From positions 1 to 64,000 of the forward strand of contig MCFG01000275.1 in the NCBI GenBank assembly GCA_002104895.1: a DNA stretch of 64,000 bases. Direction: 5' to 3'. Made by a program: the position numbers and the translations under genes. Below the pieces are notes generated by a model that was not told the DNA's origin, searched no databases, and saw only the letters and a program-made list of their open reading frames with translations. Positions 11,649 through 57,637 of the stretch are shown in pieces. The stretch comes from Anaeromyces robustus (Eukaryota). Numbering within the stretch: the stretch's first letter is position 1; every line of letters starts with the position of its first letter.

Positions 11649-11660
11649 AATATCGGAATT
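11649..11660 (+). promoter_or_regulatory. Motif variant upstream of EFHC1
   Basis: AATATCGGAATT, one mismatch to the consensus. Confidence 0.4.
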
Positions 11661-12400
11661 GTTAATATTGAAAGTTTGAATATTTAATATTTTATTTTTA
11701 AAATTTTATTGATATTTTTTTTTTTAAAAAAAAAAAAAAAAGAAATAAAATTATTTGAGTTTTATAAAAAAAAATATTTTTAAATTCTTTTTTATATATT
11801 TTCATTTTCATCAATTTAGCAATGTATTTATGTTTATTATAGATAAATTATCTATAACTATAGTAAAATTACTTTTATAACTTTAGAACATATTAAAACA
11901 AATTAATATGAAAGATATTAAACATAATAAATGTATTAATATAATACACAAATAAAAAATATATTACATTTAAACATTGTAAAAATAATTTTCAATTACG
12001 AATTATATTATAATAATATAATAAAAAATAGTATTTTTTATTTGATTTTTGTTTTATGAAATTTATATTTTAAGTGTTTCTATTTTTTTTTTTTTTTAAA
12101 AGGTAAAAAAGTAAGAAAGAAGTAAATATATATATGAGTTTAGTAAAACTAATTTACCTAAATCTTTAATTAATGGTTTTATATTTAAATGTAAATTTGA
12201 TTGTAATATTATAATATATTTTAGTTACTTTTTTAATATTAAAGATTAGGTTATATTAATATTAAAGTATTTTTGATATAAAAATACATAAAAATAGTAT
12301 TTTTTGATATAAAAATAAATTAATGAAATATATAATATATTTCATATAATTTAATTAACAATCCAATCATTATAAATAAATTTAATTAAAAATTCTTTAT

Positions 12401-12408
12401 AACTCCGA
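12401..12408 (-). promoter_or_regulatory. Candidate cilia-gene motif TCGGAGTT upstream of ZMYND10
   Basis: AACTCCGA about 50 bp before the ATG, in otherwise nearly GC-free DNA. Confidence 0.5.
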
Positions 12409-12459
12409 ATTATAAAATACCTTTTTCATAAAAGAACAAGTCATAATTAACATATTAAA

Positions 12460-54220: not shown

Positions 54221-54235
54221 AATATCGGAGTTTAA
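54221..54235 (+). promoter_or_regulatory. Candidate cilia-gene motif upstream of IFT122
   Basis: AATATCGGAGTTTAA about 560 bp upstream of the minus-strand ATG at 53665. Confidence 0.55.
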
Positions 54236-54771
54236 ATTTATTGTATACTAATTATAAAACATATAATACTTGAAAATCCAAATTTTGGTTACATAATTTT
54301 TTTATGTCTTATATAGTTTTTAATTTTTTTTTTGTACCACCAAATAAAAAATATTAAAAGTATCTTTATATTTTGTTGACTACATCATAGTTATTTTATG
54401 TATTTGTCAAATTTCAATTAAATTTTAAAATTATTGTTATATTATTGGTATATTTTTAATTTCATTAAATAATTAAAAATCGAAAGAAAAAAATTAATTT
54501 ATTTATATATTTCTACATGTTATTTATTAATTTATTAATTTAGTTATTTATTAATTTATTAATTTATTCATTTATTTATTTTATATATATATATATATAT
54601 ATATATATATTTATTTATTTATTTATTTATTTATTTATTTATTTATTTATTTATTTATTTATTTATTTATTTATTTATTTATTTATTTATTTATTTATTT
54701 ATTTATTTATTTATTTATTTATTCATGTATTTATATATATATTATAAAAGTTATTTAAAAAGATTATTTAT

Positions 54772-57266
54772 TCAATTATAATATTTTAGGTTTCTAAGGA
54801 TTTCATTTGTAGTTGTTGCTATATTTTCTGGCTTTATAAATTCGCTCGAAAATCTATAATACAATTAATAAAGTTAAGAATATATTGTTTTATATAATAA
54901 ATTATTATATTTTATGAAAGTTTATAATCAATAGTAAAAGGATACAGTAGAAATATTCTATGAATATTTTCAGTTCTAAAAAAAAGTGAAAATATATTAA
55001 GGAAATTATTTTAATATATATATATATATATATATATATATATTTATTTATTTATTTATTTATTTATTTATTTATTTATTTATTTATTTATTTATTTATT
55101 TATTTATTTATTTATTTATTTATTTATTTATTTATTTATTTATTATAGCTATATTACTTTGCATAAAATCTATATTGATCTTTATTTATAGATATTTCAT
55201 TTACACCTGGTATCTTTATAAATGAACTATAAAATTATAATTTTTTTTAAAATTTAATAATTTGAATTTTTATAATTATAATATATATATATATATTCAT
55301 ACTAACCATGTTTGATAATAAAAATTCCAAAATACATTTATAATTTCCCGTTGTTGTATTTCCGGACCTGGACGAAGTTGTGGAAATATCGTATTGCCGG
55401 TTTTAAGATTAATATATAATAATGCGAAAACTTCTCTTTTTGCAAATAATCTTAATAATAAAGGGGGTTCCTTTTTGTTATTAATAAAGCAATATTAATA
55501 TAATTTTTTAAAGACAGTGTATTATTTTAAAAATATACATTTTATTAAATATTTAACGTTTTTATTTATTTTAAAATAATAATTATTCCTAATAATATAT
55601 AAAAAAATTTACCTCAATTGGTATATCAAGTCTTGATTGAATTAACGATATTCTAAATTCTTCAACTCTATCTTTAAAAATACTATATGGTTTATCTATA
55701 AATGTTTTAAAAACAAATACATAATTTTGCATTTTTACTAAATATAAGTTTGACCAACTTTCTTGAATGTATACAGGTACATATCTCAAAACCTGAGAAC
55801 CTAATGGCCTTGACTTATAATATTGTAAAATCTTAAATTAGAACAACAACAACGAGAACAGTAATAATTATAATAATAAAATATAATATAAAAATTTATA
55901 ATTATTATTTGAATAATATGTTACACATGAAAAAAAAATTGTATAATATTTTTTACTAATGATGATATTGGTTTATAAACAAAATAAAATACCATTCTTG
56001 ATTCGTTTAAATTAAATCTACTATATAATATAGTTTCACCTAATATAATTAATGTTGAATTACTACATATACCATCCTGATTTTCAAATACTGATAATAA
56101 TTTATCAATCCTTTCTTGTACACCTTCGTCTATTGAAATCTATTTATTATAATAGTTTTAATAATGTTAATATATATTATTTTCATCTCTATATATAATA
56201 TTATATATAATTATTTATATATTAATATAAATAACATTTTTTGAAAAAATGAAAATCATTTTTACTTTTTTAATTCCTTTAACAATTGTTGTTGGATTTA
56301 ATTCAAACATCTGATTACATAAAATATCCTATATTAGTTTATATTATAATTTAAAAAAATTAGTATTTTTTTAAACAGTATAAATAATAAATATATATAT
56401 ATATAATAAATATTGTTTATAATTTATCAATATAAAATGATATTATAGATAATAATCATTAATTCCCTAATCATTACTGTTATTGTTGATTAATATACCT
56501 GTATTCCTTTGAAATCAGTAAATCCATCACTCCATTCAGAGGACTTACCAAAAATAAACTATATATTAATAATAAATATATACGTCAATCAGCAGATATA
56601 AATAATAATAGCTCTTTACATTACTTTTTAAAGGTTTTTTTTTTTATTTTATAATATCAAACCTCACATAAGTTTACAATATCTTTTATTATAGTCTTTA
56701 AAACATAACTACCAATATTTAATGAACTATGGAGAACAAAAATATACTAATTTGAATATATATATATATATATATATATATAAATTAGTTTTTTTCTTCT
56801 TGATAAAATTTATACCAAAAAATTGAAATATATATAATAATTGACAAATACATTTTCAACTTCTTTAAATAATATTTTACTTTCTGCTGTTACTACTTCT
56901 TTAATATTTTCATCAAACAGAGACTGACAAAAATTGGAAGTGGATGACGAAAATCCTAATAATAGACTTTAATTATTCTAATAATTAATATTATAACAAA
57001 GAAATTATATATATATGTATATATATATATATAGAAATTCTAATAAAGTTTATAAGTTTATAATACTTTTCATCTAATTTTTTCCCTGTAACTGCGTAAA
57101 GTTGTTGGTATTTTATTTATTTATAATTAAAATAATAATTAAAATTAATACAAAATTAAATACTATCAATAATGATTTTAAATAATTATATTAATAATAT
57201 ATGTACTTAACTATTTTTTGAAAGCAATACTTTTCCAGTTTTATTAATAATATAAAAATTTTCCAT
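54772..57266 (-). CDS. Tri-longin-domain protein of the Fuzzy/HPS1/Mon1 family, most like Fuzzy (about 12 small exons)
   Basis: Spliced product: MENFYIINKTGKVLLSKN..LLLGFSSSTSNF..KILFKEVENYIFVLHS (longin 1); TLIILGETILYS..LRYVPVYI..NLYLVKM (longin 2); VFALLYINLKTG..FWNFY..YRFYAK..RIFLLF..TTNEILRNL (longin 3). Only one exon appears in the ORF track. Confidence 0.62.
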
Positions 57267-57637
57267 TTTTATTCTTACAAATTAAAAGAATAATATCTTC
57301 CTTGATTTTATTATTCAGCGCAGTTACTTTTTTGTTTATTCTTTTATTATTTTTTTTTTAACTTATCTTATTCAATTTTTTTTTTTTGTAGTTGTGATTA
57401 TTAATACTGTTAATACTGTTAATTAATATTATTTTTATTAATATTTCTAATACTTTTTACTTCTCTTTTAATAGTGAATAATTAAATGATTAAATAATTA
57501 ATATTGTATATTAACAGAATATTTTATTTTATAATTAATTATTTAATGAATATTTATATTAAAAATTATTCTGAGTTTTAATATAAATTTCAAAATTACA
57601 GGTGTTACAAAAATTCTTAATTCAAATAAATATTGTT

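Follow-up and report, generated by a model that had tools for sequence, protein, structure and literature searches.

A candidate promoter element shared by flagellum genes in a 64-kb stretch of the anaerobic gut fungus Anaeromyces robustus

To our knowledge, the joint switching of cilium genes is understood in animals and choanoflagellates, which use RFX and FoxJ1, but in almost no other ciliated eukaryotes. The first 64,000 bases of contig MCFG01000275.1 of the anaerobic gut fungus Anaeromyces robustus (Neocallimastigomycota; assembly GCA_002104895.1) raise the question of whether a flagellated fungus has a promoter code of its own. An earlier note on this stretch, which we call the window, had pointed to the eight-base word TCGGAGTT upstream of several ciliary genes and proposed it as a regulon motif. 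We examined the copies of this word, the genes beside them and the ways in which such a pattern could arise. We judge it very probable that the element is real and belongs to promoters; that it is linked to flagellum genes has support inside the window, on few sites. We put at roughly 0.55 the probability that TCGGAGTT is a binding site for one sequence-specific factor co-regulating flagellar or zoospore genes; the regulon claim and the idea of a zinc-cluster reader are offered as hypotheses.

TCGGAGTT recurs in non-coding DNA upstream of start codons

The four exact copies listed in the earlier note were all present, with none elsewhere in the window, where 0.18 would be expected; none of 100 shuffles of the 64 kb reached four. 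All lie in non-coding DNA of about 9.5% guanine plus cytosine (G+C), 52-560 bp upstream of ATGs, in agreement with the 50-560 bp of nearly GC-free DNA that had been described. The two one-mismatch variants were likewise found, as was a near match, CCGGAGTT, at 25041, within the coding DNA of the long TRA1 exon. Each of the six copies below lies upstream of the ATG named with it; distances run from the motif edge to that ATG and use gene starts fixed in this analysis.

12401..12408, minus strand: exact TCGGAGTT; 52 bp to the ZMYND10-like ATG at 12460, in the divergent EFHC1/ZMYND10 intergenic region; AACTCCGA in gene sense
37318..37325, plus strand: exact TCGGAGTT; 141 bp to the inferred DNAI7/CASC1-like ATG at 37466; TCGGAGTT in gene sense
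41671..41678, minus strand: exact TCGGAGTT; 132 bp to the CCDC148-like ATG at 41810; AACTCCGA in gene sense
54225..54232, plus strand: exact TCGGAGTT; 560 bp to the IFT122 ATG at 53665 (gene on the minus strand), 543 bp past the last Fuzzy-like exon; AACTCCGA in gene sense
11653..11660, plus strand: one-mismatch copy TCGGAATT; 336 bp to the EFHC1-like ATG at 11317 (gene on the minus strand); possibly a weak site
57570..57577, plus strand: one-mismatch copy TCTGAGTT, in which the CGG is lost; 304 bp to the Fuzzy-like ATG at 57266 (gene on the minus strand); possibly a weak site or chance

The start of the ZMYND10-like gene at 12460 was set by a 17-base first exon followed by a GTAAG donor and an intron at 12478-12555. 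The resulting N-terminus, MISDNQ|F, matches those of seven of ten relatives (P0012-14, P0016-18 and P0021); of the other three, one is partial, one has an internal start and one reads MITENQ. For the CCDC148-like gene, the start at 41810 agrees with the N-terminus of a 579-amino-acid Neocallimastix relative (P0007). The IFT122 start at 53665 is the first methionine in the exon bearing the first IFT122 propeller, and we take it to resemble the animal IFT122 N-terminus. For DNAI7, we infer a start at 37466 because a lysine-rich exon that opens with methionine lies upstream of the Casc1_N exon.

To compare this recurrence with chance, we masked open frames of at least 35 codons with at least 17% G+C, which left 25,646 nt of non-coding DNA at 9.5% G+C. 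Here TCGGAGTT is the sole 8-mer with at least four G/C bases that occurs three or more times, and in the same survey at k = 7 only two of its own sub-words recur likewise. Across the whole window other G/C-containing 8-mers are equally enriched, but these are located in exons. The same non-coding segments were then simulated with Markov models, counting any 8-mer with at least four G/C bases at four or more copies:

Markov order 1: 3 of 1000 runs reached four copies
Markov order 2: 0 of 1000 runs reached four copies
Markov order 3: 17 of 1000 runs reached four copies

The order-3 rate is inflated because its training data contain the four TCGGAGTT copies. When one mismatch was allowed, 14 matches were found window-wide, the four exact ones included, against 8.7 expected, so that variants as a class are not enriched. 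One-mismatch copies in ciliary 5' regions numbered two against 0.22 expected in simulation, and two or more appeared in 2.2% of runs (P = 0.022).

TCGGAGTT is confined to ciliary 5' regions in the window

By Pfam on open frames and mapping of relatives we identified 13 genes in the window, seven of them ciliary by name. The nearest named relatives of their proteins are from Neocallimastix and Piromyces. In order along the window, the genes are:

NAK-type kinase, minus strand; non-ciliary
SNF2/PHD protein (PICH-like in the earlier note), plus strand; identified by Pfam, non-ciliary
8168..11317, minus strand: EFHC1-like; three DM10 domains (Pfam E 3e-34, 2e-23 and 6e-10)
12460..15304, plus strand: ZMYND10-like; C-terminal MYND finger, relatives of 436-460 amino acids
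TRA1, plus strand; identified by Pfam, with a long exon, non-ciliary
SEC8, plus strand; identified by Pfam, end read near 36821, non-ciliary
37466..41465, plus strand: DNAI7/CASC1-like; Casc1_N (Pfam E 9e-10), 3' end approximate
41810..44591, plus strand: CCDC148-like; coiled-coil, relatives mapped, language-model look-alike score 0.96
45290..49424, plus strand: AXDND1-like; weak Ax_dynein_light match
49824..53665, minus strand: IFT122; propellers, TPR and zinc ribbons by Pfam (E down to 8e-128)
54775..57266, minus strand: Fuzzy-like tri-longin; mapped with the 370-amino-acid relative P0009, sub-threshold Pfam matches
CHZ-domain protein, minus strand; identified by Pfam, non-ciliary
Open reading frame cut at the window end, plus strand

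The names of these genes differ in strength. Pfam gives strong support to the predicted identities of IFT122 and, through its DM10 domains, EFHC1, and fair support to that of DNAI7 through the Casc1_N match, while the putative ZMYND10 name is based only on the MYND finger and the family size. The Pfam matches of the Fuzzy-like and AXDND1-like genes fall below curated cut-offs, a Protein Data Bank search with their exons gave no useful match, and Pfam on the small exons of the CCDC148-like, Fuzzy-like and DNAI7 5' parts returned nothing usable. The CCDC148-like gene is transcribed and spliced: a 170-amino-acid Logan transcript protein (P0001) is 100% identical to it and joins four exons (42489-43370). 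In the IFT122/Fuzzy stretch, about half of the sampled words are present in RNA runs of the same organism.

For the placement tests, intergenic DNA was divided into ciliary 5' regions (six regions, 4,683 bp with the Fuzzy-like 3' end corrected, or 18% of non-coding DNA), non-ciliary 5' regions (four regions, 6,806 bp) and two convergent regions (1,264 bp). The ciliary class held every one of the four exact copies and both one-mismatch copies, and neither exact nor one-mismatch copies were found in the non-ciliary 5' or the convergent DNA. As the earlier note had reported, no exact copy lies upstream of the kinase, the SNF2/PHD gene, TRA1, SEC8, the CHZ gene, the last open reading frame or the AXDND1-like gene in the window. 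The tests gave the following values:

Four of four exact copies in ciliary 5' DNA, random placement in non-coding DNA: P = 0.0011
Four of four exact copies in ciliary 5' DNA, random placement among 5' regions, binomial: P = 0.028
Six of six copies, variants included, among 5' regions, binomial: P = 0.0046
By genes, exact copies: four of seven ciliary against none of six others, P = 0.049
By genes, with variants: six of seven ciliary against none of six others, P = 0.004
An ATG at no more than 150 bp for three of the four exact copies: P = 0.0017

These values bear on two alternatives. One is chance, namely that a G/C-containing word without function recurs here and was noticed post hoc. The word was indeed picked after inspection, the order-3 model produces comparable recurrence in 1.7% of runs, itself an inflated rate, and variants are not enriched window-wide. 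That 1.7%, however, does not explain why every exact copy landed in ciliary 5' DNA, which makes up 18% of the non-coding DNA, nor why three of the four have an ATG no more than 150 bp away, and we regard chance as improbable. The second alternative is a general protein-binding promoter element, comparable to the sites of yeast general regulatory factors that open chromatin at unrelated promoters, with the ciliary link arising from a ciliary-rich window. Because seven of the 13 genes are ciliary, a promoter element of any kind would often adjoin a ciliary gene here; the significant recurrence and promoter placement count for this explanation too, and the exact-copy contrast between ciliary and non-ciliary DNA, on four sites, reaches only P = 0.03-0.05. 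Yet 6.8 kb of non-ciliary 5' DNA holds no exact or one-mismatch copy and 4.7 kb of ciliary 5' DNA holds six, and we consider a general element rather unlikely.

The proposal of a ciliary regulon motif thus stood in part: all six 5'-intergenic copies adjoin ciliary genes and none lies in non-ciliary 5' DNA, but specificity by exact copies over 13 genes is at the edge of significance. Several observations weigh against co-regulation of flagellum genes by TCGGAGTT. Besides the post hoc choice of the word and the 1.7% reached by the most conservative simulation, ciliary specificity is borderline when exact copies only are counted (P = 0.028-0.049). One of the seven ciliary genes, the AXDND1-like gene, has no copy and two carry a one-mismatch copy only, one of which, TCTGAGTT, destroys the CGG. 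The IFT122 copy is far from its ATG at 560 bp, and three of the seven ciliary labels (CCDC148-like, Fuzzy-like and AXDND1-like) come from weak similarity. The evidence is drawn wholly from a single 64-kb stretch that holds 13 genes, seven of them ciliary. In addition, none of the seven best metagenome IFT122 loci (L001-L007, 33-52% G+C) has an exact TCGGAGTT within 2.5 kb upstream of the IFT122 match; these seven distant loci thus give no sign that the word is conserved beyond this lineage, and the lack of a copy there says only that the word is not universal.

The gene order of the window has features of its own. The seven ciliary genes occupy 8168-57266 (EFHC1, ZMYND10, DNAI7, CCDC148-like, AXDND1-like, IFT122 and Fuzzy-like), and TRA1 and SEC8 are the sole interruptions; with ciliary genes at a few percent of the total, chance would give a far looser grouping than seven of 13. 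For P0009 and P0019, the Neocallimastix californiae relatives of the Fuzzy-like and the ZMYND10-like protein respectively, the longest contig listed is in both cases one of 419,492 bases, which hints that ciliary gene linkage is conserved. The version of Pfam used does not recognise the CCDC148-like gene, whose expression P0001 confirms. A 9-mer, ACCAGAAGC/GCTTCTGGT, occurs four times against 0.026 expected (1192, 32391, 45636 and 53435); its copies sit in exon-like DNA of four different genes, and the recurrence is probably a coding coincidence.

Nature of the element

The DNAI7 and IFT122 copies share an identical 15-mer, AATATCGGAGTTTAA, as had been reported, which would fit pieces of some mobile element or dispersed repeat that happened to lie near these genes. 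The ±40-bp flanks of the four exact copies, however, are 0.30-0.49 identical over all six pairs, within a null built from random pairs of intergenic positions (mean 0.41 ± 0.06, 95th percentile 0.51), and therefore the four are not copies of one repeat. Moreover, a scan of the window for Rfam families found none at the gathering score and a scan for tRNAs found none. Membership in a dispersed repeat, a finding that the earlier note had set beforehand as refuting its proposal, is thus itself largely refuted within the window, and we hold it to be very improbable. Contamination by sequencing adaptors was considered and set aside as improbable, going by the known adaptor sequences.

Simple repeats are common in the DNA around the copies. 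The G+C content per kilobase ranges from 8 to 29% across the window, and A/T microsatellites of the types (AAAT)n, (ATT)n and (ATTT)n (37116-37265, 44860-45251, 11412-11547, 54608-54723 and 55041-55144) make up much of the intergenic DNA. An (AAAT)n tract lies just upstream of the DNAI7 copy and ends about 50 bp before the motif, and between that copy and the inferred DNAI7 start codon there is a short ATG-initiated upstream frame (37399-37445). The 5' region of the AXDND1-like gene, the sole ciliary gene that lacks a copy, is mostly (ATT)n repeat, with a block of ~390 bp directly upstream of the gene.

The word is used in both orientations relative to the gene, as AACTCCGA at the ZMYND10-like, CCDC148-like and IFT122 genes and as TCGGAGTT at DNAI7, and a DNA-binding site therefore fits better than an RNA signal. 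An element read in RNA or at the transcription start, in the 5' untranslated region or of initiator type, would suit the three copies at 52-141 bp from the ATG, which could lie in or at the edge of the 5' untranslated region, and the single orientation shared by five of the six copies when variants are included. That bias is not significant (P = 0.22), though, and because the DNAI7 copy is in the opposite orientation and the IFT122 copy lies 560 bp from its ATG, we give such a signal little credence. An island in A/T-rich DNA, near ATGs, in both orientations and at genes of one machine is what one would look for in a regulon's transcription-factor site.

We asked which family of factors such a site resembles. 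For the RFX X-box we took the consensus GTNRCC N0-3 RGYAAC and the half-site GTTRCY from the portion of PMC10530576 that gives them and scanned both strands with regular expressions. No full X-box occurs in the window on either strand, and the 42 half-sites all lie clear of the motif copies; RFX X-box identity was rejected for TCGGAGTT, as the earlier note had anticipated from the lack of resemblance. Half-sites number four in 4.68 kb of ciliary 5' DNA against one in 6.8 kb of non-ciliary 5' DNA, numbers that are too small, for sites that are A/T-rich, to carry weight; with the Fuzzy-like 3' end corrected, the half-site at 54815 falls outside the IFT122 5' region. A direct repeat, AAAAAGTAAC AAAAAGTAAC, lies at 57880-57910, about 620-640 bp upstream of the Fuzzy-like ATG, with one RFX-type half-site (RGYAAC) per unit.

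The earlier suggestion of a fungal Zn2Cys6 factor held in one respect: every exact copy, and the EFHC1 variant, has one CGG triplet, which the Fuzzy-like variant lacks, and four of the 14 CGG/CCG triplets in all non-coding DNA are those in the motif. It did not hold in another, as a search out to 700 bp from each copy met no further CGG or CCG, the nearest being 747-1178 bp away. Dimers of zinc-cluster proteins recognise a pair of CGG triplets set a fixed distance apart. The paired layout is therefore absent, and the word would fit only as a site of monomer type. Six bases of TCGGAGTT, CGGAGT, also open the half-site of the classical Gal4 17-mer; this presumed match is a lead only, and because of it a zinc-cluster monomer stays among the candidates.

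Co-regulation by one factor, the reading we favour, may work as follows. TCGGAGTT would be a short cis-regulatory DNA element that marks the promoters of flagellum (cilium) genes in an anaerobic gut fungus. A putative factor would bind it whichever way it faces, at a distance of 50-150 bp upstream of the ATG in most cases, and the genes that carry it would be switched on jointly when zoospores are made. The same word may act genome-wide. A zinc-cluster protein reading a single CGG is one candidate for the factor among several.

Searches beyond the window and known promoter codes

Relatives of the locus were sought in other sequence collections. IFT122 exon 1 had 103 relatives in metagenomes, and among the best 80 of these loci there was none from an anaerobic fungus, the lowest G+C being 29.7%; the best identities were 65-74%, on short contigs. 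IFT122 exon 2 had no relatives in genome contigs and none in viral contigs. The 14-mer ATATCGGAGTTTAA matched at least 119 stretches in viral contigs, and 117 of the 119 listed have at least 25% G+C. The two listed below that value are pieces of 379 nt and 614 nt, and by G+C and piece size we rejected the viral matches as chance rather than fungal DNA. In the full-text literature, the word TCGGAGTT matched only unrelated primers and oligonucleotides among the matches listed. A full-text search for promoter motifs of ciliary or zoospore genes in chytrids and Neocallimastigomycota found no such element, the Neocallimastigomycota part being judged by title and abstract.

The nearest likeness in function is the RFX X-box, described in the relevant passages of Coyle et al. 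2023 (PMC10530576) as a short promoter-proximal word common to many cilium genes of animals and choanoflagellates, used in either orientation and serving a single factor in the co-regulation of ciliogenesis. TCGGAGTT is likewise a short promoter-proximal word at cilium genes in either orientation, but the X-box consensus is unrelated to it in sequence. The same passages name FoxJ1, a forkhead factor, as a second ciliogenic promoter code in animals, state that the function of RFX and FoxJ1 in chytrids is unknown and report that a HOMER analysis of the ciliome promoters of the chytrid Spizellomyces punctatus turned up no enrichment of any motif, whether of RFX or of another kind (PMC10530576). 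TCGGAGTT differs from forkhead sites in its CGG core, which they lack. Forkhead sites are A/T-rich and, because of this, are indistinguishable from background in DNA of 90% A+T.

Two other systems offer partial likenesses. Zinc-cluster CGG sites such as the Gal4 upstream activating sequence share the CGG triplet with TCGGAGTT and differ in that the nearest other CGG or CCG is at least 747 bp from the copies. For Phytophthora infestans, an oomycete, the portion of Roy et al. 2013 (PMC3597505) that bears on the subject predicts short promoter motifs from co-expressed spore-stage genes; 'flagell' has no occurrence in the accessible text of that paper. The likeness there is of short promoter motifs in a zoospore-forming microbe, and the difference, going by the same portion, is one of kingdom and of the motifs themselves.

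TCGGAGTT is a concrete eight-base word that several flagellum genes have at 50-150 bp from their start, and it is easy to count genome-wide because the genome is so A+T-rich. Tentatively, ciliogenesis in flagellated fungi, or at least in anaerobic gut fungi, may run on its own code, TCGGAGTT, whose putative reader would be neither RFX nor FoxJ1 and is possibly a zinc-cluster monomer. If co-regulation through TCGGAGTT is true, it would be the first cilium-gene promoter code described in the fungal kingdom and an independent solution to the co-regulation that the X-box solves in animals and choanoflagellates. It would also supply a stage-specific promoter part for anaerobic fungi, where genetic tools are few.

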